Positions 22,335-40,068 of a stretch of 64,000 nt of DNA are shown in pieces; the first letter of the stretch is position 1, and each line of letters begins with the position of its first letter. This DNA is from Escherichia coli (GTDB lineage Bacteria > Pseudomonadota > Gammaproteobacteria > Enterobacterales > Enterobacteriaceae). Made by a program: the position numbers and the translations under genes. The notes below the pieces were generated by a model. The model searched no databases and was not told the DNA's origin. It was given only the letters and a program-made list of their open reading frames with translations. The stretch lies in assembly GCF_024223415.1 (NCBI RefSeq), contig NZ_CP100503.1; one strand, given 5' to 3'.

Positions 22335-22410
22335 GGTGGGCTGTATGGGGCTACCTTCGGGTAGGCTGGTTACCTTGGACGCCAGTAAGGCCAACTCCGT
22401 ACAGTCCACC
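22335..22410 (+). ncRNA. c4: c4-type antisense repressor RNA, specificity variant a (76 nt)
   Basis: ggtgggctgtatggggctaccttcgggtaggctggttaccttggacgccagtaaggccaactccgtacagtccacc has the same scaffold as the two other c4 copies (GGUGGG...CCACC closing stem, UUCG hairpin). The loop sequences are complementary to flanking sites at 22254, 22271, 22421 and 22453. Confidence 0.7.
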
Positions 22411-22470
22411 GCCAGCAAGATTGGTCTCTTCTGCGGTGGTTACATACCAACGTCTAAGGAGGCTGCCAAT

Positions 22471-22692
22471 ATGGCTACTATCCCTACCCCAACTCATCCT
22501 GAATTTATCTGGCGCTTTTACTCCTGCCAAAAACGTCACTATCACTTCGTTATTGCACCAACAGAAGATGAGGCCCGCTCTCAGCTTCCTGACGCCCCAT
22601 GTATTTTCTCTGCCCGTTTTTCCACTGATTCACGCAATTCTCTCAGTTACTGGTGCCTCCCTGTTAACGCTTCTGCTCAGGAGGGACTATGA
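22471..22692 (+). CDS. icd: Icd-like protein, 73 aa, variant N-terminus
   Basis: MATIPTPTHPEFIWRFYSCQKRHYHFVIAPTEDEARSQLPDAPCIFSARFSTDSRNSLSYWCLPVNASAQEGL. The length is the same and the stop overlaps the ant start (ATGA), as for P1 icd-ant. Confidence 0.8.
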   Translation: MATIPTPTHPEFIWRFYSCQKRHYHFVIAPTEDEARSQLPDAPCIFSARFSTDSRNSLSYWCLPVNASAQEGL

Positions 22693-23804
22693 GAACGTCA
22701 TTAGTCACCCGTGAAGAGATGATCGAGGCAATTGAACAGCACACTGCCTGTATCAGTACCAGGGATATACCGGGCGTTATTGCCAACTACTTCATGATCA
22801 CCAAACAACTTTACCGGAGAAAGGACAAGAACGCGGTTCACCGCATTCTGCTAACCGATATCCGCGAATACCTGCTCGAACAGGGTCATCTGAATTACGC
22901 AACCGTCGCAGCCGAAACACGCAAGGAGGCACACAGAATGAAAGCAACTAACGTTAAATCAGAAAAAATTCATGCAACTTCAGTTCAGGAATCAGAGCTG
23001 GTGGTTGTTCAGAATCAGTCTGATGAAATTCCCGTTCTGGAATGGCTGGGAGTGCGTGTAGTGACAACCAAGATCCTTGCTAAGGGGTATGGGACCGATG
23101 CGGATAACATCAAGAAGAACTTTTCCCGTAATGCTGAACGTTTTTGTGAAGGCAAGCATTTCTATAAAGTTATTGGAGATGATTTGAACAATTTGCGGGT
23201 GACTTTAAGTAACTCACAAAATCCCATCTCTCCTAAAGCCCGTTCACTCATCCTCTGGACAGAACGCGGCGCTGCCCGTCACGCTAAAATGCTCGAAACC
23301 GATCAGGCATGGGCATTCTTTGAAAAACTGGAAGACAGCTACTTCCGGCAAAAAGAACAGCAACCGGTTGCAATCCCCCAAACATTACCAGAAGCCCTAC
23401 GCCTGGCTGCCGAACTGGCTGAACAAAAGCAGCTTCTGGAACAGAAAGCCCACCAGCTAAATCAGCAGCTGGTGGCCGCCGCTCCTAAGGTCGATTTTGC
23501 CGACCGGGTATCAGTAGCTAAAGGGATCCTGATTGGGAATTTTGCAAAGGTTGTTGGACTTAAGCAAAACGCGCTGTTTGCCTGGTTACGGGAGAACGGC
23601 ATCCTGATAGCGTCCGGTGGACGTAAAAATGTGCCGTTCCAGCAGTACATCAACGCGGGGTATTTCACGGTGAAAGAAGTGGTGCTGGATGATGAAGATG
23701 GCTACCAGATACGGTTGACGCCTCAATTAACGGGTAAAGGCCAGCAGTGGTTGACGCGTAAACTGCTCGATGCTGGCTTGTTAAAACCGGTGGCGGCTGA
23801 ATAA
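22689..23804 (+). CDS. ant: Antirepressor Ant, copy a (N-domain + ORF6N/Bro-like middle + KilAC/ANT C-domain), 371 aa
   Basis: The C-terminal ~130 aa (APKVDFADRVSVAKGILIGNFAKVVGLKQNALFAWLRENGIL...TGKGQQWLTRKLLDAGLL) is the phage antirepressor KilAC domain. It follows icd as in P1 immI. Confidence 0.8.
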   Translation: MRTSLVTREEMIEAIEQHTACISTRDIPGVIANYFMITKQLYRRKDKNAVHRILLTDIREYLLEQGHLNYATVAAETRKEAHRMKATNVKSEKIHATSVQESELVVVQNQSDEIPVLEWLGVRVVTTKILAKGYGTDADNIKKNFSRNAERFCEGKHFYKVIGDDLNNLRVTLSNSQNPISPKARSLILWTERGAARHAKMLETDQAWAFFEKLEDSYFRQKEQQPVAIPQTLPEALRLAAELAEQKQLLEQKAHQLNQQLVAAAPKVDFADRVSVAKGILIGNFAKVVGLKQNALFAWLRENGILIASGGRKNVPFQQYINAGYFTVKEVVLDDEDGYQIRLTPQLTGKGQQWLTRKLLDAGLLKPVAAE

Positions 23805-23836: not shown

Positions 23837-24688
23837 TTATTGCGCGCTTTCGGGGTTGTCGTTTACTGGCTGCCCCTTCTTGGTTTTACGGCTGCGCGTA
23901 ACTGATGCGGCTGACTTAACCTTTTTCTCTTCGCGAGTGATGGCAATTTGTTTTTTTACATTTTCAATATCTGCCAGGCGATATATTTTTGCTTGCGGCC
24001 AGCGGTCGCAGATGATCGGTTCTATGGAGTCATAAAGGCTAAATTTTGCTTTTTCGAATTCACCGTTGATGATAATTCCATCACGGAGAGTTTCATCGCA
24101 GATAAACACGCCACACAGTGGCACATGGTAACTCACTGATTTACCGTTATTGTAGTTAGGACTACTGGAGATGTAGTGAACGCGCAGCATTGTTTCGCTA
24201 AAGCCGTGTACGCGCATACGGAATTTTTCATCCTCCGGGTACTGCTTCATTAGCTCTTTTGTTGCTTCCAGGTTCTCTATGTATTTCGCACTGTGCTCAT
24301 TGAACCCCGCGCTTTTTTGGATGCGAATGTCCTTATCAATCAGATGAATAATGCGGCCAGCGGTCATGTTGACGCTGTTTACAGCTTCTGTCTGATAGGT
24401 CGTAACCTTACGCACACCGCGAAGGATGTTAGGCACAGGATATAAAATAGTCTTTGGGATATTGAGGTCTGGGTACTGTTCCAGTTCCCGCGCCATTAAA
24501 GTCCATTTATCAATTTCAGCCTGAATGCTGTCAGTTTCTTTGAACGGTAGAACGACAACCGGGCGTACAGGACGACCGTCGCTGGCTGTATCAACGTGTT
24601 GGGCGCGTGCAACAGCTTTTTTTAGAAAGAGATCCCTGAAGCTGACGAACTCCTGGTACAGTTGTTCGCCGTAGACATAATTTATCAT
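23837..24688 (-). CDS. c1: C1 master repressor of lysogeny, 283 aa
   Basis: MINYVYGEQLYQEFVSFRDLFLKKAVARAQHVDTASDGRPVRPVVVLPFKETD... matches P1 C1 from memory. The length of 283 aa also matches. Confidence 0.95.
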   Translation of the reverse strand: MINYVYGEQLYQEFVSFRDLFLKKAVARAQHVDTASDGRPVRPVVVLPFKETDSIQAEIDKWTLMARELEQYPDLNIPKTILYPVPNILRGVRKVTTYQTEAVNSVNMTAGRIIHLIDKDIRIQKSAGFNEHSAKYIENLEATKELMKQYPEDEKFRMRVHGFSETMLRVHYISSSPNYNNGKSVSYHVPLCGVFICDETLRDGIIINGEFEKAKFSLYDSIEPIICDRWPQAKIYRLADIENVKKQIAITREEKKVKSAASVTRSRKTKKGQPVNDNPESAQ

Positions 24689-24782
24689 TGATCCTCCTCC
24701 AGAATTGACATGGTCAATAACGCCCGGCTGAGAAAACCGGTCATTACTGACCTATATTATAGAGGGATCAAACAAAAATAAT

Positions 24783-24799
24783 AGATTTATTAGTGCATT
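24783..24799 (-). promoter_or_regulatory. C1 operator (Op99-region variant) between c1 and coi
   Basis: Reverse complement is aatgcactaataaatct, 14/17. Confidence 0.55.
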
Positions 24800-25008
24800 T
24801 ATTGTGAGTCTAACTGGTTAGTTGCCATGAGATATTCGATTGTGTCAGTGAGGTCATCCAGGTCGTCTTGGGTGATGCGGTACTCCTGATTGGATATCTT
24901 TGAGTAGTGTTCAGCAATGGCGCGGGCAGCGTCGGTTTCGGCAGGGTCTACAGATAAAGCGTTAGAGCAATATCTAACGTCGTCGATGGTTGGTTGAATG
25001 AAAGCCAT
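24799..25008 (-). CDS. coi: Coi, C1 inactivator, 69 aa
   Basis: The size and the position immediately upstream of c1 on the same strand match P1. Confidence 0.75.
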   Translation of the reverse strand: MAFIQPTIDDVRYCSNALSVDPAETDAARAIAEHYSKISNQEYRITQDDLDDLTDTIEYLMATNQLDSQ

Positions 25009-25247
25009 AATTATGCCTCACTGTATTGACAACACAGAGCCTGAAGCTCTGACCTACTGTTTCACCCATAATCCATGCTGGGGGTAATCTAACAACATTG
25101 CGCTGTGTGTAAGATGAGCAATGCATAGCTGTAATGCCGTTGTATAAGGTTTCCCTGTTTGCTCATTTCCTTCTGAGCCGCTCTACAACGCTGAAGACAC
25201 ATTAAATAGTGAATCCAAAGTCGTATTACGTAACGGCGGCAAAACTA

Positions 25248-25264
25248 TAATTTATTAGAGCAAT
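25248..25264 (-). promoter_or_regulatory. C1 operator
   Basis: Reverse complement is attgctctaataaatta, 16/17. Confidence 0.7.
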
Positions 25265-25330
25265 TGTCAAACAACTATGAAAAACAATCCAGTTTTTGGC
25301 TGGTGGAGTGGGATTTTTCTCTCAAAATTT

Positions 25331-25347
25331 ATTGCTCTAATAGTTCT
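25331..25347 (+). promoter_or_regulatory. C1 operator
   Basis: attgctctaatagttct, 14/17. Confidence 0.55.
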
Positions 25348-25390
25348 TGATCTTTATGCGCAGCTGGACGTAAACTGCTCTTCAGACCTA

Positions 25391-25424
25391 ATAACTTCGT
25401 ATAGCAAACATTATACGAAGTTAT
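25391..25424 (+). other. loxP: lox site (loxP with a variant spacer)
   Basis: ataacttcgtata-gcaaacat-tatacgaagttat has both 13-bp arms identical to loxP. The spacer is GCAAACAT rather than the canonical GCATACAT. Confidence 0.95.
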
Positions 25425-25496
25425 CTTAAGGGTTATTGAACATGATTAATTTACCTGTAAATCCATACAGTTCAATACCTTATCAGGTCAAATAGT

Positions 25497-25516
25497 GATC
25501 ACTTGATCATTTGATC
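25497..25516 (+). promoter_or_regulatory. Cluster of three GATC (Dam) sites near lox
   Basis: gatcacttgatcatttgatc. A Dam-sensitive cre promoter near loxP is described for P1. Confidence 0.5.
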
Positions 25517-25661
25517 AAGGTTGCGCTACGTAAAATCTGCGAAATGTTGGCAGTGTTTGTGCTCCAGATTTCGCGTAGCGCATATATCCCAAGATGGGAC
25601 TAAAAAGCTTTACCTAATCCCAGAATGGGACTAATATACTTGCCGGGATAAGGAATATGTA

Positions 25662-25964
25662 ATGAAGATTATTTCGGTAAAAACATTGAGGGATTTTTGG
25701 TCTGTGAATCCCGATGCAGAACAACCATTAAAGGCCTGGGTTGACGAAGTCTCCAAGGCCACCTGGAAAAGCCCGGCTGATATCAAAGCGCAGTACCGAT
25801 CTGCCAGCATTCTTAAAAACAGGCGGGTTGTCTTCAACATCAAAGGTAATGACTACAGATTAATTGTTGCAATTGCTTATCAGCGAGGATGGATGTTCGT
25901 TAAGTTTATTGGAACACATAAGGAATACGATGCCATCGACGCGGATACAATAGAGCTGGAGTAA
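25662..25964 (+). CDS. higB: HigB-family type II toxin (RelE-fold mRNA interferase), 100 aa
   Basis: MKIISVKTLRDFW...ATWKSPADIKAQYRSASILKNRRVVFNIKGNDYRLIVAIAYQRGWMFVKFIGTHKEYDAID is the typical HigB_toxin pattern. It is followed 3 nt later by an HTH antitoxin, in the toxin-first order of hig loci. Confidence 0.8.
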   Translation: MKIISVKTLRDFWSVNPDAEQPLKAWVDEVSKATWKSPADIKAQYRSASILKNRRVVFNIKGNDYRLIVAIAYQRGWMFVKFIGTHKEYDAIDADTIELE

Positions 25965-25967
25965 ATC

Positions 25968-26327
25968 ATGAACATTAAACCTATCCGTACAGAACAAGAT
26001 TATCAGGCCGCACTACGCGCGGTCGAACCTATGTTCGATAACGAACCGGAAATGAACACCCCGGAAGGTGATTTCTTTGAGATAATGTGCCTGCTTATTG
26101 AAGAGTATGAAAAAAGACATTACCCAATTGAACCGCCTACACCCATTGAAGCGATTAAGTTCCGTATGGAACAGCAAGGGTTGACAGTGAAAGATCTGGA
26201 ACCGGCGATTGGTAAGTCGAACCGTGTTTACGAAGTTCTGAATGGAACGCGAAATTTAACGTTACCAATGATTAGGCGTTTGCACGTACAGTTTGGCATT
26301 CCTCTCGAAAGTCTGGTTGGTGTGTGA
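25968..26327 (+). CDS. higA: HigA-like antitoxin, XRE-type HTH at the C-terminus, 119 aa
   Basis: The C-terminal GLTVKDLEPAIGKSNRVYEVLNGTRNLTLPMIRRLHVQFGIP is an HTH. It is paired with higB. Confidence 0.75.
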   Translation: MNIKPIRTEQDYQAALRAVEPMFDNEPEMNTPEGDFFEIMCLLIEEYEKRHYPIEPPTPIEAIKFRMEQQGLTVKDLEPAIGKSNRVYEVLNGTRNLTLPMIRRLHVQFGIPLESLVGV

Positions 26328-27405: not shown

Positions 27406-28638
27406 TTAGTGGGTGACGGCTGATTGCTCAGCGTCTGGTTCCTGCTTCAACGGGCGGTCTGACTGCACCGTCCCTCCACAGGCAAGTACGGCGTGCCCCG
27501 CCGCTAAAATGTTGCGAGCGCCGTTTACATCGGCGTTCGCTGTATATCCACAAGCCCGACACACGAATTTACTTTGTGTCAGGCGGTTTTCTTTCGCTGT
27601 ATGACCACAGCACGCGCAACGCTGGCTTGTGTACGCTGGCGGAACAGCAAGCACCTGACCACCACGCCAGAGCTGCTTGTACTCAAGCTGGCGGCGCATT
27701 TCATACCAGCCCTGATCCAGTATCGAACGGTTTAAACCTGATTTTGCCCGGACATTGCGCCCCGGCTGGCTGACCGTACCCGCTGCTGACTTTGACATGT
27801 TGCTGACCTTCAAATCCTCAATGACTATCATTGCGTGGTTTTTGCTGACGGTCGTTGTGACTTTGTGAAGGTAGTCCCTGCGGATATTTGCAATACGGGA
27901 ATGCAGTTGCTGTATTTTGCGTTTCTGCTTCTGCCAGTTGTTGCTGAATTTGACCCTGCGGCTTAACTGTCGCTGAAGTCTCGCCAGCTTCTTCTGGTTT
28001 TTCTGAAAACTGTTTACAGGTTCAAAGACTGTGCCATCTGACAGCGTGGCGAGTTTAGCCACGCCAGCATCCAGACCGACTATCGTTGTGCTTGTGTGAT
28101 TTGGTTCTGCCGTTTCAATTTCAACCTGAAACGAGATATACCACTGTCCCGCTAACTGACTGATTGTCGCATTTTTGATTTTACCGTTCACACGTTGAGA
28201 TTGCCGGAATTTTACCCACCCAAGACCTGACGGTAGCTTCACTCTGCGATTTTCAAGGCAGCAATATTTCTCAAAGTTCACAAAACGGATTGAGTCTCTG
28301 CCCTCATTTTTTCGTTTCCATACCGGAGCCTTAGCTGCGAGCTTTTTATCAAAACAACGTTTCCATGCGGTATGCAGGTCTTTCAGCTTTTGTTGCAGAT
28401 TGTCGGTATAAGCATCCTGTAAGAAGATATATTCCGGCATTTTTTTCCACACTGTAATCATCCGGTTCAACTCGAAAGCCGAAGGTAACTTTTCGCCTGA
28501 GCCAAGTACGCGCTTTGTCTCCGCAAGACCTAAATTCCAGACAAAACGGGCGCAACCACATAACTGCCGCAAACGCTGCGACTGTTCATGCGTTGGTTCC
28601 AGTCTGAATTTGTAGGCTTTCAGGATTAGCATCATCAT
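27406..28638 (-). CDS. tnpB: TnpB (RuvC-like RNA-guided nuclease family), 410 aa
   Basis: IVGLDAGV (RuvC-I), the zinc-finger CACCGH...CRACGY and ADVNGARNI (RuvC-III) are present. The C-terminal ~220 aa are nearly identical to the TnpB of copies 1/2, but the N-terminal ~190 aa are only distantly similar. Confidence 0.9.
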
Positions 28639-28690
28639 TCAGTGTGTAGTAGATTTTCTTGCAATATTACTGTTTTTACGGCCAACCTCA

Positions 28691-29095
28691 ATGCAAAAAT
28701 ACAAAATCAATCGTTCAAGACATGCTGCCTTCCTTTTGCATGTTCATCTTGTCTTTGTAACAAAATACCGTCGAAAGATACTGGGAGAGTTACACTGTGC
28801 AGCATTCCATCAGTATGCAGCAGAAGTCTGCCGTGACTTTGGGGCAGAACTTAAAGAAAGTAACGGAGATGTCGATCATGTCCACATGCTGATCGAATAC
28901 CCACCAACAGTGCAGCTTTCGGTACTGGTTAACTCACTGAAAGCAGTGACATCCCGCCGTCTGCGAAACGAATTTCTTGATTTGCGGGGGGCATACGGAA
29001 AAGCCGTGCTCTGGTCGAGGTCATACTTTGCTGGCTCCTGCGGAGGTGCGCCGCTGGAAGTTGTGAAGCAATATATTCAACATCAGCGAGGCTGA
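28691..29095 (+). CDS. tnpA: TnpA, Y1 (HUH) transposase of the IS200/IS605 family, 134 aa
   Basis: HUH motif (HVHLVF), DHVHML, and the C-terminal SYFAGSCGGAPLEVVKQYI containing the catalytic Tyr region. Confidence 0.9.
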   Translation: MQKYKINRSRHAAFLLHVHLVFVTKYRRKILGELHCAAFHQYAAEVCRDFGAELKESNGDVDHVHMLIEYPPTVQLSVLVNSLKAVTSRRLRNEFLDLRGAYGKAVLWSRSYFAGSCGGAPLEVVKQYIQHQRG

Positions 29096-29233: not shown

Positions 29234-29545
29234 ATGAGAAAGGATTTCAACATCGACGGAAAATATGTAGTGCTGTCTGTAAGCACTAATATTCAGTCGC
29301 CAGCCGTCATTGTCACTGTAAAGCTGAGCGATAGAATACCTGATATTGACTCAATATCCGTTGCGTTCCCTGTCAAAAGTATTCGTAGTGCTGAACATTT
29401 CGTGATGAATGCCACCGAGGAAGAAGCACGGCGCGGTTTTGCTAAAGTGATGTCTGAGTTTGGCGAACTCTTGGGTAAGGTTAACAATGTCCTTTCAATC
29501 AGTTCAGCAAGGTCCAAAGCGTTAACAGCTTCCATGATGAAATAA
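29234..29545 (+). CDS. Hypothetical 103-aa protein (position of P1 cra)
   Basis: ORF preceded by an Op and followed by a hairpin (29551-29569). No family recognised. Confidence 0.5.
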   Translation: MRKDFNIDGKYVVLSVSTNIQSPAVIVTVKLSDRIPDIDSISVAFPVKSIRSAEHFVMNATEEEARRGFAKVMSEFGELLGKVNNVLSISSARSKALTASMMK

Positions 29546-29676
29546 AAAAAGCCTGGCAAGGAGCCAGGCTGCACAAAAGAGCGGGTTTGTATTCCGCATC
29601 CAATCAATCAAGAAGGAGTATAGCACACAGGTACTGAAGTGAAAAAATGTGATTCGCGATTAACAAAATATCTACC

Positions 29677-29693
29677 ATTGCTCTAATTGATTG
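29677..29693 (+). promoter_or_regulatory. C1 operator
   Basis: attgctctaattgattg, 14/17. Confidence 0.5.
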
Positions 29694-29759
29694 ATATAAT
29701 TAAGCCGCAGTTTTTGTCAACTACGAAGACATTGCCATTATAGACTCCGTGACATCATT

Positions 29760-29783
29760 GGCGGCCGAAAGGCCGCCTTTTTT
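29760..29783 (+). terminator. Rho-independent terminator
   Basis: ggcggcc-gaaa-ggccgcc followed by tttttt. It abuts the stop of convergent ant(b). Confidence 0.75.
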
Positions 29784-29785
29784 AA

Positions 29786-30850
29786 TCATTCAGCCGCCAC
29801 AGGTTTTAACAAGCCAGCATCGAGCAGTTTACGCGTCAACCACTGCTGGCCTTTCCCCGTTAATTGGGGCGTCAGCCGTATCTGGTAGCCCTCTTCATCA
29901 TCCAGCACCACTTCTTTCACTGTGAAATATCCGGCGTTTATGTACTGCTGGAACGGTACATTTTTACGTCCACCGGACGCTATCAGGATGCCGTTCTCCC
30001 GTAACCAGGCAAACAGCGCGTTTTGCTTAAGTCCAACAACCTTTGCAAAATTCCCAATCAGGATTCCATTAGCCACTGATACCCGGTCGGCAAAATCGAC
30101 TTTAGGAGCGGCGGCCACCAGCTGCTGATTTAGCTGGTGGGCTTTCTGTTCCAGAAGTTGCTTTTGTTCAGCCAACTCGGCAGCCAGGCGGAGGGCTTCG
30201 GGGAGTGTCTGGGGGATCGCTGGAGAAGCAGCGCTAACCTGCTGCAACTCCTCCAGCTTGTCGATCAACGAACGGCGGACCGCTTTTGACTCGCGCGCGG
30301 CAACTCGCAGGGCTTGTTTGTAGGTCATGGTTATGACCTCAAAAGAGCGCCCAGCCCTTGTGCCATGGGATTTTACGAAAGTTTCGTAAAATTCCCCATC
30401 AAGTTCATCCTTAATTCTATTGAGAAAATCGTTATTGCGGATCTCATTTTCCCCACATAGCTTGCGCGCCTCATTGACCATCTTTAACAGTGTCTGGCTG
30501 TCGATTGTGTCGCCCGTACTGGGGATAACATCCATGGCTGGTAGTGGTGTGGATTCTATCAAAGGCTTTGTAACGACAACATCTGGTTTGCTTGCTTTCA
30601 TTCTGTGTGCCTCCTTGCGTGCTTCGGCGGTTACGGTTGCATAATCAAGACGACCCTGTTCGAGCAGGTATTCACGGATATCAGTTAGCAGAATGCGGTG
30701 AACCGCGTTCTTGTCCTTTCTCCGGTAAAGTTGTTTGGTGATCATGAAGTAGTTGGCTATAACACCAGGAATGTCCCTGGCGCTGATACAGATTGTGTGC
30801 TGTTCAATAGCCTCGATCATTTCTTCACGGGTAACTAATGACGTTCTCAT
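29786..30850 (-). CDS. ant: Antirepressor Ant, copy b (alternative middle domain), 354 aa
   Basis: The N-terminal 85 aa and C-terminal KilAC domain are about the same as copies a/c. The middle (IDSQTLLKMVNEARKLCGENEIRNNDFLNRIKDELDGEFYE...) is shared instead with copy d. Confidence 0.8.
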   Translation of the reverse strand: MRTSLVTREEMIEAIEQHTICISARDIPGVIANYFMITKQLYRRKDKNAVHRILLTDIREYLLEQGRLDYATVTAEARKEAHRMKASKPDVVVTKPLIESTPLPAMDVIPSTGDTIDSQTLLKMVNEARKLCGENEIRNNDFLNRIKDELDGEFYETFVKSHGTRAGRSFEVITMTYKQALRVAARESKAVRRSLIDKLEELQQVSAASPAIPQTLPEALRLAAELAEQKQLLEQKAHQLNQQLVAAAPKVDFADRVSVANGILIGNFAKVVGLKQNALFAWLRENGILIASGGRKNVPFQQYINAGYFTVKEVVLDDEEGYQIRLTPQLTGKGQQWLTRKLLDAGLLKPVAAE

Positions 30851-31068
30851 AGCCCCTCCTGAGCAGAAGCGTTAACAGGGAGGCACCAGTAACTGAGAGA
30901 GTTGCGCGAGTCAGTAGAAAAGCGTGCAGAGAAAATGCAGGGAGCGTCAGGAAGCTGAGAACGGGCCTCATCTTCTGTTGGTGCAATGACGAAGTGATAG
31001 TGACGTTTTTGACAAGAATAGAAGCGCCAGATAAATTCCGGGCGTGCGCAAGGATTGGCATTAACCAT
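30847..31068 (-). CDS. icd: Icd, 73 aa, copy b
   Basis: MVNANPCARPEFIWRFYSCQKRHYHFVIAPTEDEARSQLPDAPCIFSARFSTDSRNSLSYWCLPVNASAQEGL. ATGA overlap with ant(b). Confidence 0.85.
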   Translation of the reverse strand: MVNANPCARPEFIWRFYSCQKRHYHFVIAPTEDEARSQLPDAPCIFSARFSTDSRNSLSYWCLPVNASAQEGL

Positions 31069-31118
31069 AGTTACGGCCTCACAAGTTGAATTAACAACCT
31101 GCTACCCGCTGTCAAACA

Positions 31119-31195
31119 GGTGGCAGGACGTGACAGGGTTGACAGACTGGCACTTGTGAAACCAGCAGGCCGAAGCCTCCCCATCACGCCCCACC
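31119..31195 (-). ncRNA. c4: c4 antisense repressor RNA, specificity variant b (77 nt)
   Basis: Minus strand reads ggtggggcgtgatggggaggcttcggcctgctggtttcacaagtgccagtctgtcaaccctgtcacgtcctgccacc. The loops CUGUCAA and UCACAAGU are complementary to flanking TTGACAG and ACTTGTGA sites. The 77-nt size agrees with published c4. Confidence 0.8.
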
Positions 31196-31385
31196 ATAAT
31201 TCGGGCGTAACGCGGTTTTACGGACACAAAAATACCGCAATAACGGAGTGATGCGGTTGTCCGCACAAGTATTCAGGCTGTCAAACCCGGTCGCAGAATT
31301 TGCTACGACGCAGGAACTATAAGCCTGAACGACGGGAAGATCAATAGTCTGGCGTCCAATAGTAGTTTATTTGTTCCAATAAATC

Positions 31386-31402
31386 AAATTTATTAGAGCA
31401 AT
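31386..31402 (-). promoter_or_regulatory. C1 operator (Op51-like) heading immI module b
   Basis: Reverse complement is attgctctaataaattt, 17/17. Confidence 0.85.
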
Positions 31403-31462
31403 ACAATCTGGTTGAATGTTTCCTCTCCGAGGTTGCAATGTGCACACTTATTGTTTTATTTG

Positions 31463-31479
31463 TATGCACTAATAAATAT
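31463..31479 (+). promoter_or_regulatory. Possible C1 operator variant upstream of the 31661 gene
   Basis: tatgcactaataaatat, 13/17, the same GCACTAATAAAT variant as at 24783. A TTGACA -35-like hexamer lies at 31501. Confidence 0.4.
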
Positions 31480-31660
31480 ATTATTTTTAATAATAAATAA
31501 TTGACAACTGACAAGTGACTTCAGTCAGAATCATCACACGCCCGGTACGGATGGATCCCTTTTCAAATATTCCATGGACGGCACAGTCTGAGTACCGGGC
31601 GCTACCTTCAGTTGTATTGCTAAGCCGCCGCTGGTGGCTTTTCTTTTTTGTAGGGGCGCT

Positions 31661-32302
31661 ATGGATAAGAAAATATGCGTTGTTTCAATGTGCGTCGGCA
31701 AACCGGCGTCAATGACTGCTGCATGGATCAACAATGAGCTGATCATGGCTGAGCGGACCAGCTACCCTGAACGCCGCCGCGATATGGAACTCCAGCTGCT
31801 GCGCGAATTGCGAGAAAAAGAGGAAAAGGGTTTTATCGTGCTGGTGGAAGAGGAAAACAGCTTTATTACCGGTCGAGTTGGCCAGCGTGTAAGGTTGCGT
31901 GATCCCTTCATGAACGGCAGACCGGTACTGATTGAAGCAATGCAGATTTACAAGGAATTGGAACGCCAGAAAGCGATCAAGTTACCGCGCAAGGAATCCG
32001 GCAAATACATCCTTCACCAAAGCATCTTCGATTCCGAACACGATAAAAAAGGCGATGAATTTTTCAACATCAACTGGAGCGAAATAACGACAGAGCACGT
32101 TCTGACGTTGTTATGCTGCTTCGCAACGGAATATAACAACGTTGCAAGCGCCGACTACATCAGGGCAATGGCTGGAGAAGTTGAGGCACGCCAGGAACCA
32201 TCGTTACTAAGCCCTCTGATTAACATAATTCGCGGCACACAGAGACTTGCGGAAAAAAGCGTTCCACACGGAATCTTAACTGGGAAGGGAAACTATTTTT
32301 AA
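31661..32302 (+). CDS. Hypothetical 213-aa protein (cargo between the inverted immI modules)
   Basis: Track ORF is 31634..32302. I prefer ATG 31661 (MDKKICVVSMCVGKPASMTAAW...). No motif recognised. Confidence 0.55.
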   Translation: MDKKICVVSMCVGKPASMTAAWINNELIMAERTSYPERRRDMELQLLRELREKEEKGFIVLVEEENSFITGRVGQRVRLRDPFMNGRPVLIEAMQIYKELERQKAIKLPRKESGKYILHQSIFDSEHDKKGDEFFNINWSEITTEHVLTLLCCFATEYNNVASADYIRAMAGEVEARQEPSLLSPLINIIRGTQRLAEKSVPHGILTGKGNYF

Positions 32303-32335
32303 CATCCCCAAATCCTTTTGGGGAACAACTCATTC

Positions 32336-32653
32336 TTACAATAGCTGCCCCATACATTGTCTCCAGGCACTCCCCTCATTACCGTTATCAAGAAACGTAG
32401 AGGTTGCATAAGGAATGCCTCTGATTTGTGTTGATGTGAATGGACCATCAGACGTCGAAGTTGTGCGCAGTTTTGATGTAAACTCGTAATTTCCACTGAT
32501 GCCTTTCTCTGCCAGAGCTTTTGATTTTGTGATAACTAAATCTGCACATTTCTCTGCGGCTACATATTGCGGGTCTTTTTCAGCTTTTCCGGCACATGCA
32601 GTTATCGTTAAAACGATAGCTGCGGCTAACAAATTACCTAGTTTCATCTGCAT
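32336..32653 (-). CDS. Small lipoprotein, 105 aa
   Basis: N-terminal signal peptide with lipobox (AAAIVLTITAC|AGK). Confidence 0.65.
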   Translation of the reverse strand: MQMKLGNLLAAAIVLTITACAGKAEKDPQYVAAEKCADLVITKSKALAEKGISGNYEFTSKLRTTSTSDGPFTSTQIRGIPYATSTFLDNGNEGSAWRQCMGQLL

Positions 32654-32751
32654 ACCTTATTAAGTGCATTAAAAACAGTAGGTTGCCAAGGTTTTAAACA
32701 AATTTCAATCCTCCATGACGCTCAATATGAGCAAAAATAACACACAAACAT

Positions 32752-32768
32752 CATTGCTCTAATAAATT
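32752..32768 (+). promoter_or_regulatory. C1 operator (Op51-like) heading immI module c
   Basis: attgctctaataaattt, 17/17. Confidence 0.85.
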
Positions 32769-32959
32769 TGATTTTTTAGGGCAAATAAACTACCATTGCG
32801 CACTGCCCTATTGATCTCCTTACCGTTCAGGCTTATATTCATGCCGTCGTAGCAAATTCTGCGACCGGGTTTAGCAGCCTGAATACTTACGCGGACAACC
32901 GCAGATATCCGATATTGCGGTATTTTCATGTCCGTATAACCGCGTTACGCCCGAATTAT

Positions 32960-33036
32960 GGTGGGGCGTGATGGGGAGGCTTCGGCCTGCTGGTTTCGTA
33001 AGTGCCAGTCTGCTAACCCCGTCACGTCCTGCCACC
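32960..33036 (+). ncRNA. c4: c4 antisense repressor RNA, specificity variant c (77 nt)
   Basis: ggtggggcgtgatggggaggcttcggcctgctggtttcgtaagtgccagtctgctaaccccgtcacgtcctgccacc. The loops CUGCUAA and UCGUAAGU are complementary to flanking TTAGCAG and ACTTACGA. Confidence 0.8.
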
Positions 33037-33086
33037 TGTTTAGCAGCGGGTCGCAGGTTGTTTTATCAACTTACGAGGCCGTAACT

Positions 33087-33308
33087 ATGGTTAATGCCAA
33101 TCCTTGCGCACGCCCTGAATTTATCTGGCGCTTTTACTCCTGCCAAAAACGTCACTATCACTTCGTTATTGCACCAACAGAAGATGAGGCCCGCTCTCAG
33201 CTTCCTGACGCCCCATGTATTTTCTCTGCCCGCTTTTCCACTGATTCGCGCAACTCTCTCAGTTACTGGTGCCTCCCTGTTAACGCTTCTGCTCAGGAGG
33301 GACTATGA
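33087..33308 (+). CDS. icd: Icd, 73 aa, copy c
   Basis: Protein identical to copy b. The track ORF 32958..33308 is an upstream extension through c4. Confidence 0.85.
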   Translation: MVNANPCARPEFIWRFYSCQKRHYHFVIAPTEDEARSQLPDAPCIFSARFSTDSRNSLSYWCLPVNASAQEGL

Positions 33309-34417
33309 GAACATCGTTAGTTACCCGTGAAGAGATGATCGAGGCAATTGAACAGCACACTGCCTGTATCAGTACCAGGGATATACCGGGCGTTATTGCC
33401 AACTACTTCATGATCACCAAACAACTTTACCGGAGAAAGGACAAAAACGCGGTTCACCGCATTCTGCTAACCGATATCCGTGAATACCTGCTCGAACAGG
33501 GTCATCTGAATTACGCAACCGTCGCAGCCGAAGCACGCAAGGAGGCACACAGAATGAAAGCAACTAACGTTAAATCAGAAAAAATTTATGCACCTTCAGT
33601 TCAGGAATCGGAACTGGTGGTTGTTCAGAATCAGCCGGATGAAATTCCCGTTCTGGAATGGCAGGGAGTACGTGTCGTGACAACCGAAACTCTTGCTAGA
33701 GGGTATGGGACCGAAACTAATAACATCAAAGTTAACTATACGCGTAATGCTGATCGCTTTGAGGAAGGTAAACATTACTTTCTACTAACTGGTTCAAAAT
33801 TAAAAGAATTGAAGGACAAGGTTACTCAAAGTAACTTAGTCGCACCGCGAGCAAAGCACCTCACTCTCTGGACGGAACGCGGCGCAGCCCGCCACGCTAA
33901 AATGCTCGAAACCGATCAGGCATGGGCATTCTTTGAAAAACTGGAAGACAGCTACTTCCGACAAAAAGAACAGCAACCGATCGCAATCCCCCAGACGCTT
34001 CCTGAAGCTCTGCGCCTGGCTGCCGAACTGGCTGAACAAAAGCAACTTCTGGAACAGAAAGCCCACCAGCTAAATCAGCAGCTGGTGGCCGCAGCCCCTA
34101 AAGTCGAGTTTGCCGACCGGGTATCAGTGGCCAAGGGGATCCTGATTGGGAATTTTGCAAAGGTTGTTGGACTTAAGCAAAACGCGCTGTTTGCCTGGTT
34201 ACGGGAGAACGGCATCCTGATAGCGTCCGGTGGACGTAAAAATGTGCCGTTCCAGCAATACATCAACGCCGGGTATTTCACGGTGAAAGAAGTGGTGCTG
34301 GATGATGAAGATGGCTACCAGATACGGTTGACGCCCCAGCTAACTGGGAAAGGCCAGCAGTGGTTGACGCGTAAACTGCTCGATGCTGGCTTGTTAAAAC
34401 CGGTGGCGGCTGAATAA
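33305..34417 (+). CDS. ant: Antirepressor Ant, copy c (ORF6N/Bro-like middle), 370 aa
   Basis: Collinear with copy a. The middle domain reads VLEWQGVRVVTTETLARGYGTETNNIKVNYTRNADRFEEGKHYFLL. Confidence 0.8.
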   Translation: MRTSLVTREEMIEAIEQHTACISTRDIPGVIANYFMITKQLYRRKDKNAVHRILLTDIREYLLEQGHLNYATVAAEARKEAHRMKATNVKSEKIYAPSVQESELVVVQNQPDEIPVLEWQGVRVVTTETLARGYGTETNNIKVNYTRNADRFEEGKHYFLLTGSKLKELKDKVTQSNLVAPRAKHLTLWTERGAARHAKMLETDQAWAFFEKLEDSYFRQKEQQPIAIPQTLPEALRLAAELAEQKQLLEQKAHQLNQQLVAAAPKVEFADRVSVAKGILIGNFAKVVGLKQNALFAWLRENGILIASGGRKNVPFQQYINAGYFTVKEVVLDDEDGYQIRLTPQLTGKGQQWLTRKLLDAGLLKPVAAE

Positions 34418-34425
34418 TGGAAGAA

Positions 34426-34445
34426 TGCCCGGTTGATGCCGGGCA
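34426..34445. terminator. Hairpin after ant(c), same element as after ant(a)
   Basis: tgcccgg-ttgatg-ccgggca. Confidence 0.4.
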
Positions 34446-34459
34446 AAAGGGCGGAAAGT

Positions 34460-34708
34460 TTAATCAGCATTCAGGAGCAATGCGTTATCTATGATGATCT
34501 GCTCCCATTCTTCGAATGCCCGGTCGCGGACGCCCTGGGGAACACTGTTAGTTTTGAAATCGACGACCATACGCCATTTCCCGTCCGGACGGTACATGCG
34601 CAGAGCTTTACTTCCCCCTTCCCTGCGCACCTCAACGTTATGCTTGTCAGCAAACTCTTGTAATGCTCGTAGCGTCCCATGCTTTACTGTGTAGTATCGC
34701 TTTTTCAA
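34460..34708 (-). CDS. Hypothetical 82-aa protein
   Basis: ORF with ATGA-type overlap with the upstream 146-aa gene. No family recognised. Confidence 0.5.
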   Translation of the reverse strand: MKKRYYTVKHGTLRALQEFADKHNVEVRREGGSKALRMYRPDGKWRMVVDFKTNSVPQGVRDRAFEEWEQIIIDNALLLNAD

Positions 34709-35178: not shown

Positions 35179-38100
35179 TTATGCGTATTGTTGGATGACG
35201 GCCAGAACGTCCGCCACGTTGTGTTTTGTCTCGATAATCCACCAGTTACCCGGGAAATCGCTGTTCTTCGCCTTCGCTGGCAGCCAGCGAGCGCCGAATT
35301 TCGCCTTGATTGCGTCTTTCGCACGGAAAAGAACCCCTTTCATGCCTGAGGCTTCCTGAAGCCCAAATACCTCGCCAGCGGCGAATTTTGGTGCGTACAT
35401 CATCTTCAGGTCGGCGGTGGATACGCGATAATTCAGGCCAAGAGACTGAGCTATGCTGGTGGCATCACCCTGTATTGATGATAACTCTTCTTGTTTCTCG
35501 TTTCTGGCGGCAATCTCTTCCTCCGTGATGTTGCCAAGGGCCAGGTTTATCCGATCAGCGTCGGCCTGTTTCTCTTCATCGGTGCGCCCGGCAAGAACCG
35601 TGTTAATTCTCTGCAATATCTCCACATGATTCTTGCGCATGCTGAGCAATTCCGGCGTAACCTCGTTAAGATCCACCAGCCCAAGGATGGCAAGGTCGGA
35701 AAACATTGATACCAGGTTGTAGGTCATGCGATAGCTGAGTTGACCATAGGCTGATGGCAACTTCACCGCATCCATTTGATAGGCATCCATAAATTTAGAG
35801 CCGTCGTTTACGACATCCGCTATTGCAGGTGTGATTTTCCCTGTGGTGGCGGCCTCCCTGATTGCTGTTACCCACGATTGAGTCAGCGCGGCGACTGCAT
35901 GATTCAGATTGGCTTTCCGTTCTGCTGCGATGCGCGCGCTTGCTGCGTCCATTGCCTGCTTGATCTCGGCTTTATTGCTGTAAATGCCAATGGTGCCAAA
36001 CTGTGCTGTGGTGATCTCATAATCTGACGCCCGGAACTCATTGGTACCGAAAATGGCATTGGTGACTTCAAGTTCAGAATCCCCGTTACGAGTAGCCCCC
36101 TGGCTTGTTTTTTCCGGCATTCTGGCGATCGCATCCGCTATTTTCTCCTGAATTGCTTCAGGGGATAGCGTATCTCCGTATGACGCGATTACATCGCCAT
36201 AATTGGAGCCAAACAATTCAACCAGGAATGTTTCTGCCGAACGGATCTGGCGGTTATTCCCTTCCGACATCATACCAAGCACCCATTTTGCAATTGACGA
36301 CTTCAGCGCGCCGTCACGGCGATCCGGGTAAACCGCATGCTTCAGTGGGTCCGTATAGGTACCAACAAAATCAATGCTATAGCCTGACTCTGTAGTCTGA
36401 ACGCCGTATGAGTCAGTGATTTTGATCATGCCGCGCTGCTGGAAACGGTAGAAATCGTCACAGGAAATGATGTCGTTAATCCCGGCGATGGAGACGCCAC
36501 CACTGATTTTCTGCATAACAGCATCTTCATCGGGAGTTACATCCACCTGTTTATCCAGCGTCTTCACATCCCAGTTACCCGATTTGGTGCCTTTGAAGGT
36601 AAAGATGATCTCCACGTCTGCGCGCTGGCTGTCGAAGTCCAGCGACTTAATGCGAACGATATCACCGGCACAATCGTAGTATTGGCCTACACGCCATGAG
36701 CGATCGCCGATAACAAGGAACTCACTCGCATGGTTAACCAGGTCAGGATCAACATCCAGAATGCCTTTATTTATTGCATCCTCCACCAGCGGGCGCAGGC
36801 GTTTGATATCCGTCGCGGCCTTCTGAGTACGGTTCAATAATTTCTCATAGCGGGAGATGGCTTGAGAGATATTAGCCTTGCGCTGAATGGCGTTTTTCAA
36901 CGACGCGCGATACTGTGCTAACAACATACGGTCTGTGTGATGGACGCTCCCCCAGCGGGCCTTCCAGTCTGCGTTATCAGCTGCTTTGGCCATTACCGCC
37001 TGTTTGAATTTAGCTACCTCGGCGGTGGTCTTTTCAAGTTCCGCTTTGCTTCGCTCTAATTCAGCGGTAAGTACCTCCACATCCTCGCCAGCTGCGTGCT
37101 GCGCCTTGATGTAGTTCTGAAGGTCGATAGTAGCCTGTTCTTTCTGGCGAGCGCGTTGCGCGGCTTTCGCCTTATCCATTTGAACCTGCATCATTGCCAG
37201 ACGTTCGCCATCATCCTTAGCGGTATACATCTGCATTTCGATCATATCGTTGGCGTCGGCGTTCTCCATTTCAGACTTATCTGAGCGGAGGATATCGGAG
37301 ATCCAGCCTGCTTTACGCTTCAGCGTCTTCAGTCGGTATTCATCGAAAGAACCCTTGCCGCAGTAGTAGTGAACGCGAACGCTTGCACGGTTGGAACCAA
37401 CTCGGGCACCGCGACCGTTACGCTGTGCGATACTGGCTGGTGTCCATGGCAACGTCAGATGATGGATGTCAGTCGTTCCTCGATGCAGGTTGATACCCAC
37501 CTCTGCCTTTTTGTTGCAGATGATGATCGGAGTCCGGCCCTCCTGGAAGTCGGCAGCAATCTTTTCCAGCCCACCCAGCGACATTTCATTTTGCTGCGCG
37601 ATATAGGCGTCATACAGAGCCATTTGCTCGTTGTATTTCGCTATCTGTGCATCTGTTGGTTCATCCGGTAGCTCTTTCGGCGGTTTAACCGCTTTCAGTT
37701 TCTTACCGGTTTTACCTGCCTCGGCAACCGTCTGAGCATTCAGGATCCCCACCTTTGAAGGTTCAAGGTTAAGAGCATTGCAGATAATGCGCTTGAGCTT
37801 CTGGTGTTGCGTTTTTTCATCGGTGAAGATGATTTGCTTACCTTCCGGGAAAAACTCCTTCAGCGTGGCGATCAGCTTCGCGTATTTCGGCGTAACGGGG
37901 TGAGTTACGGTCTGTTCGTCAATGCCAAACCTGGCCAGGCGCTTATTCACTTCCTGCTCGAACGCTTCCGGAACCTGCAACTGAATAAACTCGCCCTTAT
38001 CTATCAGGGAGTATTGCGATTGCTGCGTGATCGAATCATCACTGTCGTCGTCTTCGCTGGTGGCTTGTTTAGGCAAACTGTCCGCCAGCTGCTGCACCGC

Positions 38101-40068
38101 ATCGGCGTACTCCGGCAGGAAACGATAGGTGATCCTGCGATAGTACAGGTCCATGTCAGTACATACGCGGTCCATATCCCTGATTATTGAGAAGATCGGA
38201 CGGGCTTTCTCGTGCTCAATCACGCCGTCTTCATTGACCGAGGTCGTTACGCCATTGTTGGCTTTGGCTGCCGCTTCCGCCTGCTGACGCAATTCTTCAT
38301 ACGCCGCCAGTTGTTCTTCCGTAAGTGGTGCATCCTGCTGGTGTTCGTCCAGTTCCGGGATCTCCACGGTATCCTTAACGTCTTCCGCCGTTTTAAGCGT
38401 TGTCCAGCGATGGAATATGCCGCGCAGCGCATCAAGGTTTTCAAAGCCCACCAGCGCCATTTTTTCTTCAACTTCACCGCTAATTTTCTGTACCGTTTCC
38501 AGCCTGGTCTTGCCGAAGAATTTAACGAAGTCATCAGGACCGTAGATCCCCATCTTCTGCCAGTATTCCTTCGGCAGCACATGAGAAAGCATGTTGTATG
38601 CATCGATCGGGGTGTTAACGACTGGCGTTGCAGTCAGGAGAACCGGTCCGCGCCCACCATTCTTTTTCATCAGGTACGCGTTTTTAATTGCCATATCCCG
38701 CGCCGATTGCGCCACCGCGCTGGTGGGCAGATAGGCCAGTTGTGACGCTTCGCGACCATTTTTATAGCTATTGCGGTAGTTGTGACCTTCGTCAGCGATC
38801 ACACTATCGAAGCCCATATCCTCAAAGTACGGATACTTCTCTGCTTTTTCGGTGCCGGTATCTGAATACTCCGACAATACCCGGCGACGCGCGGCCTCTT
38901 TGCGGTGGGAGTCGGAGTCCATTGCGCTGGCTACGCGCCCGGCGGCAACGAAGTCATAAAGCATATCCTGTGCATGCTCATCTACGGTGTCATCACGTAG
39001 CGGAATGCGGGCGTATTGTTCTTTGGTAAACACGACTGCACGGTAATTTGAGTGCGGGATCGCGTTCATCCGCGCCGTGATAGTGGCTTCATCTGCCAGC
39101 TTAAGAGCATCGCGCATAACTGGAGTGCCATCAGTACCAAGAACAGGTTTACCGTTCTCATTGAGCACCGGCACCTGGCGAATCTGATCGCCATCCATCA
39201 GCACATCAAGACCGACGAACAGGTAGTTACTGAATGCCTCTTCACTCAGGAACTCTTTTGCTTCGTAATACCAGTTTTCCAGCACTGATTTAGGCACTAC
39301 ATACGCAGTACGGGTGGAACGACCGTTCTCATAGTTGAACGCCTCAAGCGCCAGCGCGGTCGTGGTTTTACCCAGCCCGGTACCGAAGCCCAGGATGCCG
39401 CGCCCATCTTCGGACAGTCGGCGCACCTCGCTATTCTGGTAATCAAATGGCTGTCGCTTACCGCTTAATCCCTTCAACCCAAGCGGATCGCCAGAGTGTT
39501 CATACGGGATATTGCTATTGAACACATCGTTGTATTTGGCAACCAGCTCATCGTAGCGATCGTGCGTCTTGATCCACTTATTGAACTGGTCCTCAAGCAG
39601 TGCCATCTGCTCGCGGTAGCCGTTCGCCGTCGCGCTATCTTTGCCACCGATACGCGCACCATTGAGATACTTTTCCAGCTGTGCCGGGAACCCGGTCGCG
39701 TTTTCACCTGATTTACGGTCCCACTCGTAGCGGATCTCGCCTGTTTCTTTATCCTTGCGCTGGACGACACCGTATCGGTGCCCGACGAACAGACCATCAC
39801 CACCGTGATAGGTGTCAGAAACCATTTCGTCGCCTTCCAGCTGCACTGACTGCACATAGCGAAGATCCGGATAGCCGTTTTCCTGCAAAAATTCCAGAAT
39901 GACGGAACGGTCGAACCAACGGCTATTGAGCTTAAAGCGGATATTCTCTGCTGGCGTCTTGATGCGCTTCTCTTCGATCGCTGCCAGCTGATTAAGGACG
40001 TTGTTCTTTACCCAGTGCGCCGTAAAGCCCCGTCCTTCAGGTCGGGGATATAAGGCGCGGTTTTCCAC
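35179..40068 (-). CDS. darB: DarB-like giant SF2 helicase, N-terminally truncated by IS copy 1 (native sequence ends at 40011; first 19 codons come from the IS left end)
   Basis: Helicase motifs GFGTGLGKTTTAL, VIADEGHNYRN, LLTATPVVNTP and QRNGRGARVG are present. The reading frame enters the IS at TTAC (40008-40011). No methyltransferase domain is present upstream. Confidence 0.7.
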   Translation of the reverse strand: MENRALYPRPEGRGFTAHWVKNNVLNQLAAIEEKRIKTPAENIRFKLNSRWFDRSVILEFLQENGYPDLRYVQSVQLEGDEMVSDTYHGGDGLFVGHRYGVVQRKDKETGEIRYEWDRKSGENATGFPAQLEKYLNGARIGGKDSATANGYREQMALLEDQFNKWIKTHDRYDELVAKYNDVFNSNIPYEHSGDPLGLKGLSGKRQPFDYQNSEVRRLSEDGRGILGFGTGLGKTTTALALEAFNYENGRSTRTAYVVPKSVLENWYYEAKEFLSEEAFSNYLFVGLDVLMDGDQIRQVPVLNENGKPVLGTDGTPVMRDALKLADEATITARMNAIPHSNYRAVVFTKEQYARIPLRDDTVDEHAQDMLYDFVAAGRVASAMDSDSHRKEAARRRVLSEYSDTGTEKAEKYPYFEDMGFDSVIADEGHNYRNSYKNGREASQLAYLPTSAVAQSARDMAIKNAYLMKKNGGRGPVLLTATPVVNTPIDAYNMLSHVLPKEYWQKMGIYGPDDFVKFFGKTRLETVQKISGEVEEKMALVGFENLDALRGIFHRWTTLKTAEDVKDTVEIPELDEHQQDAPLTEEQLAAYEELRQQAEAAAKANNGVTTSVNEDGVIEHEKARPIFSIIRDMDRVCTDMDLYYRRITYRFLPEYADAVQQLADSLPKQATSEDDDSDDSITQQSQYSLIDKGEFIQLQVPEAFEQEVNKRLARFGIDEQTVTHPVTPKYAKLIATLKEFFPEGKQIIFTDEKTQHQKLKRIICNALNLEPSKVGILNAQTVAEAGKTGKKLKAVKPPKELPDEPTDAQIAKYNEQMALYDAYIAQQNEMSLGGLEKIAADFQEGRTPIIICNKKAEVGINLHRGTTDIHHLTLPWTPASIAQRNGRGARVGSNRASVRVHYYCGKGSFDEYRLKTLKRKAGWISDILRSDKSEMENADANDMIEMQMYTAKDDGERLAMMQVQMDKAKAAQRARQKEQATIDLQNYIKAQHAAGEDVEVLTAELERSKAELEKTTAEVAKFKQAVMAKAADNADWKARWGSVHHTDRMLLAQYRASLKNAIQRKANISQAISRYEKLLNRTQKAATDIKRLRPLVEDAINKGILDVDPDLVNHASEFLVIGDRSWRVGQYYDCAGDIVRIKSLDFDSQRADVEIIFTFKGTKSGNWDVKTLDKQVDVTPDEDAVMQKISGGVSIAGINDIISCDDFYRFQQRGMIKITDSYGVQTTESGYSIDFVGTYTDPLKHAVYPDRRDGALKSSIAKWVLGMMSEGNNRQIRSAETFLVELFGSNYGDVIASYGDTLSPEAIQEKIADAIARMPEKTSQGATRNGDSELEVTNAIFGTNEFRASDYEITTAQFGTIGIYSNKAEIKQAMDAASARIAAERKANLNHAVAALTQSWVTAIREAATTGKITPAIADVVNDGSKFMDAYQMDAVKLPSAYGQLSYRMTYNLVSMFSDLAILGLVDLNEVTPELLSMRKNHVEILQRINTVLAGRTDEEKQADADRINLALGNITEEEIAARNEKQEELSSIQGDATSIAQSLGLNYRVSTADLKMMYAPKFAAGEVFGLQEASGMKGVLFRAKDAIKAKFGARWLPAKAKNSDFPGNWWIIETKHNVADVLAVIQQYA

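Follow-up and report, generated by a model that had tools for sequence, protein, structure and literature searches.

Why a P1-like element should carry two copies of an immunity module facing each other is the question raised by a 64,000-nt stretch of Escherichia coli DNA (NCBI RefSeq assembly GCF_024223415.1, contig NZ_CP100503.1; the whole stretch is hereafter called the window, and positions are those of the window unless another record is named). In it two c4-icd-ant modules, here termed b (29786-31402, minus strand) and c (32753-34417, plus strand), enclose mat and an open reading frame (ORF) coding for 105 aa as the arms of an interrupted inverted repeat. The window belongs to a P1-like E. 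coli phage-plasmid: positions 29500-34700 are 99.4% identical over their full length to the plasmid pMTY1886_untypable_1 of E. coli TUM1886 (97,409 bp; NZ_CP128972.1; hereafter the sister plasmid). In this type of system the c4 RNA acts in trans to repress Ant synthesis, and Ant1 and Ant2 antagonise C1 (PMC8546580), and the heteroimmunity of the phages P1 and P7 has been attributed to small differences in their immI regions (PMC6906374). By analogy with these phages, modules b and c probably represent extra, intact and largely independent C1-controlled antirepressor switches, which would both broaden the immunity conferred by the element and help break the immunity of a rival.

Both modules belong to the P1/P7 immI family, as judged from their complete a1-b1-c4-a2-b2 plan (Table 1), and the processing of c4, its repression in trans and the antagonism of C1 may be expected by analogy with the prototypes. 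Each possesses a match to the C4 family of Rfam (RF01695; 68.6 bits at 31116-31201 on the minus strand for b and 70.8 bits at 32954-33039 on the plus strand for c, with a gathering score of 45) and another to the c4-a1b1 family (RF03163; 56.8 bits at 31270-31322 on the minus strand and 54.6 bits at 32833-32885 on the plus strand, with a gathering score of 46.7), along with the a2 and b2 sites, the coupling layout of icd with ant1 and ant2, an Ant protein with a KilAC domain and a C1 operator. The limits of the 77-nt c4 RNAs were set by homology to the annotated c4 of P7. There are 15 sites in the window with up to three mismatches to the C1 operator 17-mer, as against 0.2 expected by chance, and the only perfect ones are those of b and c, whose 17/17 match had been claimed in an original prediction made from the sequence of this locus. 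The other sites quoted in that prediction were likewise recovered with the same positions and sequences, the sole correction being to the operator of module c, which had been placed at 32752-32768. The promoter downstream of the operator in module b is presumably the equivalent of P51b of P1. In both modules the b2 site runs into the Shine-Dalgarno sequence of icd (ACUUGUGA-GG in b and ACUUACGA-GG in c), about 9 nt upstream of the icd ATG. The two Icd proteins are identical, as predicted, and their genes differ at 14 nt, all of which are synonymous; therefore both copies of icd have been kept by purifying selection.

Table 1. Positions of the features of modules a, b and c and of the core between b and c
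Feature	Position	Strand	Remarks
C1 operator, module b	31386-31402	-	17/17 to ATTGCTCTAATAAATTT
Sigma-70-like promoter, module b	31316-31344	-	TTGATC-17-TATAGT; downstream of operator; conserved in P1 and P7
a1 target, module b	31278-31284	-	TTGACAG
b1 target, module b	31264-31270	-	ACTTGTG; a1/b1 overlap Rfam c4-a1b1 match 31270-31322
c4 antisense RNA b, 77 nt	31119-31195	-	b' loop UCACAAGU, a' CUGUCAA
a2 target, module b	31109-31115	-	
b2 target, module b	31079-31086	-	ACTTGTGA; overlaps icd Shine-Dalgarno GAGG
icd b, 73 aa	30847-31068	-	stop overlaps ant start (ATGA); RefSeq name from sister plasmid
ant b, 354 aa	29786-30850	-	Ant1 N-terminus, Ant2 start 30599-30601, P1-type central head, KilAC
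mat (maturation control)	31634-32302	+	core between arms; orientation as in P1
105-aa ORF	32336-32653	-	phrog_16031, no Pfam match; in core, divergent from module c
C1 operator, module c	32753-32769	+	17/17 to ATTGCTCTAATAAATTT
Sigma-70-like promoter, module c	32811-32839	+	TTGATC-17-TATATT; P51b-like; predicted
a1 target, module c	32871-32877	+	TTAGCAG
b1 target, module c	32885-32891	+	ACTTACG; a1/b1 overlap Rfam c4-a1b1 match 32833-32885
c4 antisense RNA c, 77 nt	32960-33036	+	b' loop UCGUAAGU, a' CUGCUAA
a2 target, module c	33040-33046	+	
b2 target, module c	33069-33076	+	ACTTACGA; overlaps icd Shine-Dalgarno
icd c, 73 aa	33087-33308	+	protein identical to Icd b
ant c, 370 aa	33305-34417	+	Ant1 N-terminus, Ant2 start 33554-33556, ORF6N head, KilAC
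Module a, third c4-icd-ant unit	22137-23804	+	between pacB and c1
C1 operator, module a	22137-22153	+	15/17
isrK-like leader, module a	22228-22305	+	Rfam isrK, 60.8 bits
Diverged C4, module a	22329-22416	+	75.9 bits
icd, module a	22471-22692	+	
ant, module a	22689-23804	+	ORF6N + KilAC

Alignment of both modules with the corresponding regions of P1 (X15639) and P7 (AF503408) brings out the specificity determinants. In the a system module b is of the P1 type (site UUGACAG, a' CUGUCAA) and module c of the P7 type (site UUAGCAG, a' CUGCUAA). In the b system the sites and the cognate b' loops are respectively GUUAGUG and CACUAAC in P1, GAUUGUG and CACAAUC in P7, ACUUGUG and CACAAGU in module b, and ACUUACG and CGUAAGU in module c; hence there are four different b' loops, and in each case b1 and b2 match the b' of their own module. 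The surmise that b and c might simply correspond to the P1 and P7 types thus survives for the a/a' elements alone, and assignment of either module to one of the two established types has to be rejected, given that its a' matches one of them and its b' neither. The two c4 RNAs were originally said to differ at exactly two 2-nt patches. Both patches are present, at positions 39-40 in the 9-nt hairpin loop (b') and at positions 54-55 in the single-stranded a' junction, and there is a fifth differing base at position 61, where a G-C pair replaces a G.U pair in a stem. A common minimum-free-energy fold is predicted for the P1, P7, b and c RNAs, with the variable bases unpaired, and comparison of the c4 of module a with those of the P1 clade revealed a compensatory change in 8 of 27 pairs. 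The expectation that the targets change in step with the antisense RNA is borne out at all four sites, with the complementarity holding both upon alignment with P1 and P7 and upon folding. The predicted b'-b2 duplexes have energies of -11 to -12 kcal/mol for the cognate combinations and -3.4 to -7.5 kcal/mol for the non-cognate ones. With each c4 matched to its own four targets, the sequence supports the proposal that one genome carries two immI specificities in a head-to-head arrangement.

These features suggest a mechanism patterned on that of P1 and P7. C1 would control the upstream promoter, and the conserved promoter downstream of the operator would supply c4, each c4 RNA being excised from the leader of the transcript to which it belongs. 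The b' loop and a' junction would then pair with b2 and a2, respectively, such that the ribosome-binding site of icd is covered; because icd and ant are translationally coupled, a block of icd would also stop the synthesis of Ant. Given that b', a' and all four targets differ between the modules, silencing by each c4 should be mostly limited to the module that encodes it, so that the element would keep several antirepressors under RNA locks that are largely independent of one another. As a prophage, it would silence the Ant of those incoming P1-like phages that share its c4 types, resulting in a broader immunity. As an infecting phage, it would have at least one Ant that escapes a resident prophage without the matching c4 and thereby breaks the immunity of that prophage. 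Superimmunity against more than one immI type is plausible.

The number of modules in the element is higher than the two that had been proposed; b and c are real, and they are accompanied by a third unit in the window, module a, whose a', b' and four targets, when read directly from the sequence, are mutually complementary. Furthermore, the sister plasmid possesses a canonical immI beside kilA-repL (24578-26000 of the locus L135 in NZ_CP128972.1) with the exact c4 specificity of P1; this region is outside the window, the source of which probably carries a canonical immI too. A query comprising c4 and icd recovered four places in the plasmid of TUM1886, and therefore the element represented by the window most likely has four antirepressor modules, each with an RNA code of its own.

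The inverted repeat formed by b and c consists of two pairs of arm segments, 30592-31402/32753-33563 (811 nt, 90% complementary, 1350 nt apart, in agreement with the predicted core of about 1.35 kb) and 29775-30220/33983-34428 (446 nt, 93%), and is interrupted because the central heads of the two Ants differ, the gap between the segments being the central part of ant, which is non-homologous between the copies. With arms totaling about 1.26 kb at 90-93% identity, and perfect runs of up to 107, 64 and 60 nt, it is conceivable that homologous recombination flips the core with mat or swaps c4 cassettes between the ant genes. In particular, a crossover inside icd would exchange the cassettes between an Ant with a P1-type head and one with an ORF6N head, and the population indeed shows reassortment of this kind. 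However, the four complete genomes that possess both arms all show collinearity with the window, mat retains the orientation that it has in P1, and the 7-10% divergence of the arms, inclusive of the 14 synonymous changes in icd, argues against frequent exchange or homogenization. No inverted isomer of the core was found among database plasmids, which is a weak test as the four both-arm genomes represent about three lineages, and no site for a site-specific recombinase was found. The arms are diverged gene copies as opposed to the short crossover sites of Cin/Hin-type invertible segments. Thus, the inversion of the core that had been envisaged finds no support, and we consider an invertible segment very improbable. 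Even less credence, practically none, can be given to an assembly artefact that duplicated one module: it has in its favor just the general risk attending repeats, whereas the arms differ at about 10% of their positions and across the whole central Ant domain, and the same layout recurs in four independently assembled complete E. coli genomes, namely those of TUM1886, two O111:H11 strains and UMNF18.

The architectures of the Ant proteins bear on a further possibility. All of them share the Ant1-specific N-terminus and a C-terminal KilAC domain (PF03374; Pfam E-values of 1e-30 to 1e-32), and the ATGA overlap of icd with ant and the internal Ant2 start (AGGAGG-N-ATG at codon 84 of Ant) are conserved. 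Ant b, with 73-76% identity to the Ants of P1, P7 and the canonical module, has the central head of the P1/P7 type, whereas Ant c, which is 69% identical to Ant b, and Ant a have an ORF6N domain in its place. Given that the head type reassorts freely with the c4 type, it could be argued that the Ants with ORF6N heads inactivate the repressors of unrelated prophages instead of the C1 of P1, and thereby induce competitors. Cross-acting antirepressors of this kind are known from Gifsy and P22 phages. The Gifsy antirepressors reportedly bind and inactivate lysogenic repressors (PMC4825925). Yet the modules still lie behind perfect C1 operators and follow the RNA logic of P1, and both ends of the protein, the Ant1 N-terminus and the KilAC C-terminus, show high conservation with the Ant of P1. 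Hence, we regard such a cross-family weapon as rather unlikely; it is compatible with b and c being additional C1-controlled switches and does not exclude that explanation.

Survey of the wider population reveals how the specificity elements vary. A scan of IMG/VR with the invariant c4 hairpin recovered at least 120 stretches, which together with two Escherichia genome contigs yielded 126 parsable modules of the P1 clade; genomic context could be classified for about half of the IMG/VR loci, the others having short flanks or non-P1 backbones. The two Escherichia loci were the only ones at which a P1-type module was recovered in the scan of genome contigs, most of the other matches there being chance hits in unrelated GC-rich genomes. 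Two divergent c4-like sequences were seen in the same scan in a Duganella metagenome-assembled genome and in Glaciimonas. Among the matches listed, to which the counts from this survey refer, the P1-clade modules display 2 a' types and 6 main b' types, namely CACAAUC (42 modules), CACUAAC (26), CGUAAGU (24), CAUUCGU (15), CAUGUAC (14) and CACAAGU (3), and 11 of the 12 possible combinations are present. One target pair is absent in about a dozen of the 126 modules; wherever both pairs are readable, a1, b1, a2 and b2 match the c4 (7/7 and 2/2), with the single exception of L045 (IMGVR_UViG_2565956613_000015), on the minus strand near a contig end. This locus combines a b1 and a b' of the CAUUCGU type with a b2 and a downstream icd of the P1 type. 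Its makeup resembles that of a recombinant in which the crossover fell between a2 and b2, and Ant might be expressed constitutively from it. For the isrK-type c4 of module a there are at least two specificities, whose targets match here too, 31 of 34 copies in IMG/VR being alike and one alternative specificity being represented. In terms of entropy across 61 distinct leaders, the region from the -10 element of the promoter to the start of icd is near-invariant except for a1, b1, b', a', a2, b2 and a few scattered columns. The code of module c (P7-type a' with CGUAAGU) is common and is often that of the canonical immI of other plasmids, and the code of module b is rare.

Turnover of the codes can be witnessed between close relatives. 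Over 5.2 kb there are 31 differences between the sister plasmid and the window. Of these, 19 fall within 31081-31288, a 208-bp cassette spanning the leader and c4 of module b, and through them b1, b' and b2 jointly pass from the CACAAGU type of the window to the CGUAAGU type. Such clustering of differences on a near-identical backbone implies that the specificity cassette has been exchanged by recombination; the plasmid p88_0502-1 of an O111:H11 strain retains the specificity types of the window.

The frequency of the modules allows a more conservative account to be weighed, under which b and c are passengers, i.e. intact by-products of recombination between P1-like plasmids at the variable ref and res-mod hot spot that add nothing beyond the canonical immI. 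The query with c4 and icd matched 1027 places in 676 records from 655 of 5426 complete E. coli genomes, and the head-to-head pair around mat is found in 4 of the 5426. This rarity is what passengers would lead one to expect, as is the existence of plasmids with module b alone or module c alone, from which the double form could have arisen by a single cross. Moreover, the two positions coincide with regions already known to vary (RD-1 in PMC6906374). On the other hand, an evenly spaced sample of 60 records contained 15 with two places, 3 with three and 2 with four, indicating that about a third of the sampled P1-like records retain two or more modules. Passengers would also not account for the exclusively synonymous differences in icd, operators that are perfect in b and c and better than the canonical one, targets matched without exception in these modules, variation that is confined to the specificity patches, and the swapping of a specificity cassette on a near-identical backbone. 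Taken together, these observations make mere passengers a decidedly unlikely explanation.

Several observations nevertheless weigh against b and c being independent switches. First, the b' of the module c RNA (CGUAAGU) can pair 7/7 with the module b site ACUUGUG by means of two G.U wobbles, at -6.3 kcal/mol, though in the reverse pairing, of the b' of module b with the site of module c, there are two A.C mismatches. Second, the predicted energies of the a' duplexes are uninformative, as the a' segment has alternative partners in the leader. Third, in the sister plasmid modules b and c have the same b' and differ only in a'. Fourth, the contig L145 (IMGVR_UViG_2698536372_000019) bears at 1001-2589 a tandem duplicate of the isrK-type (module a) unit, with the copies 1566 bp apart and an identical c4. 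Finally, co-resident pairs with identical codes number 1 of 38 as against 4.3 expected, which, with P ~0.06 and non-independent samples, is only suggestive of avoidance of a shared specificity by co-resident modules. The stronger proposition that such modules never share a specificity is weakened by this P value as well as by the sister plasmid and the tandem duplicate. The contig with the duplicate also bears two P1-clade modules.

Placed against known systems, modules b and c share with the immI of P1 and P7 (Op51, c4, icd, ant1/ant2) the C1 operator, the promoter, the order of a1-b1, 77-nt c4 and a2-b2, the positioning of b2 over the icd Shine-Dalgarno, the 73-aa Icd, the ATGA-coupled ant1 with its nested ant2 start, the KilAC C-terminus and the 2-nt specificity patches. 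They differ in flanking mat in place of ref and res-mod, whereas the immI of P1 and P7 adjoins kilA-repL, in having b/b' elements unlike those of both phages, in the ORF6N head of Ant c and in the presence of several modules per genome. The processed leader RNA CI of the satellite phages P4 and phiR73 comparably pairs with seqA and seqC up- and downstream of it, and shows specificity differences of a few bases among relatives; however, it controls transcription termination in the early operon as opposed to icd-ant, and there is no C1 operator. A looser analogy is offered by the immI of P22 (sar, ant, arc, mnt), in which the antirepressor is partly checked by a small antisense RNA; sar is unrelated and not homologous to c4, and protein repressors are involved. 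Module a alone resembles the IsrK-orf45-AnrP system of Gifsy-1 from Salmonella, in that an isrK match lies directly upstream of C4 and a short ORF with coupling to the gene of an antirepressor comes next, but differs from it in lying behind a C1-type operator. In Gifsy-1 the short IsrK RNA activates the translation of anrP (PMC4825925), whereas the c4 of P1 represses. Extra copies of icd and ant have been mentioned in passing in RD-1 of pSvP1 and in pTZ20_1P (PMC6906374), and also in a D6-like plasmid (PMC6799933). No analysis of the RNA specificities of such copies was found in the literature searched, the reach of which excluded key primary papers on immI.

The gene order at the locus is c8, [ant b - icd b - c4 b - Op b], mat, 105-aa ORF, [Op c - c4 c - icd c - ant c], lxc, to be compared with cre-c8-ref-mat-res-mod-lxc in P1; module b thus occupies the position of ref, and the small ORF together with module c that of res-mod. 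By eye, the N-terminus of the protein encoded by the 105-aa ORF (32336-32653) resembles a lipoprotein signal, and P7 has lipoprotein genes at the equivalent position upstream of its canonical immI. In other P1-like plasmids (e.g. NZ_CP122941.1, NZ_CP142921.1 and NZ_CP123256.1) the icd-ant module by mat adjoins varied cargo, including genes for SIR2, PIN, MBL-fold hydrolase, DUF2971, GNAT and HTH plus DUF3944 proteins, which suggests that this module borders a hot spot for defense and accessory genes. Elsewhere in the window, an IS200/IS605-type insertion at 27406-29095, between a cre-like integrase gene and c8, is absent at that point in the sister plasmid; its ORFs encode a 134-aa Y1 transposase and, on the minus strand, a TnpB-like protein of 410 aa with OrfB_IS605 and Cas12f1-like TNB domains. 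A match to the Rfam sok antitoxin RNA (91.4 bits at 44984-45158) implies a post-segregational killing locus of the hok/sok type. On the minus strand at 35179-40068 there is a 1629-aa ORF where the sister plasmid has a 6.8-kb gene for an N-6 DNA methylase (darB-like), which is annotated as a pseudogene with an internal stop.

The heteroimmunity of P1 and P7, in which two-base changes set the specificity of an antisense RNA, is a textbook example, and to our knowledge it has been described for only two types, with one module per phage. The same logic appears here as a larger code, with at least 11 self-consistent combinations of a and b and several distinct modules per element. More tentatively, and as a possibility toward which we do not quite lean, the modules may constitute a combinatorial RNA lock-and-key code, with at least two a-types and at least six b-types in the P1 clade in addition to at least two isrK-type c4 specificities, and with up to four or more distinct modules stacked at fixed genome sites. 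If this were true, the stacking would amount to an arms race, in which an extra c4 widens the shield and an extra Ant provides a key against prophages without the matching c4; diversifying, frequency-dependent selection would then likely act on just six short patches, swapping cassettes of about 200 bp between otherwise identical genomes. The modules also furnish a natural set of short pairs of RNA regulators and targets that are possibly independent of each other. As modules b and c of the sister plasmid differ only in a', that plasmid offers the means to tell directly whether specificity is set by a' or b' alone. P1-like plasmids commonly carry genes for resistance and virulence in E. coli, and, if the modules are expressed and independent, the code that they embody would explain coexistence or displacement among these plasmids.

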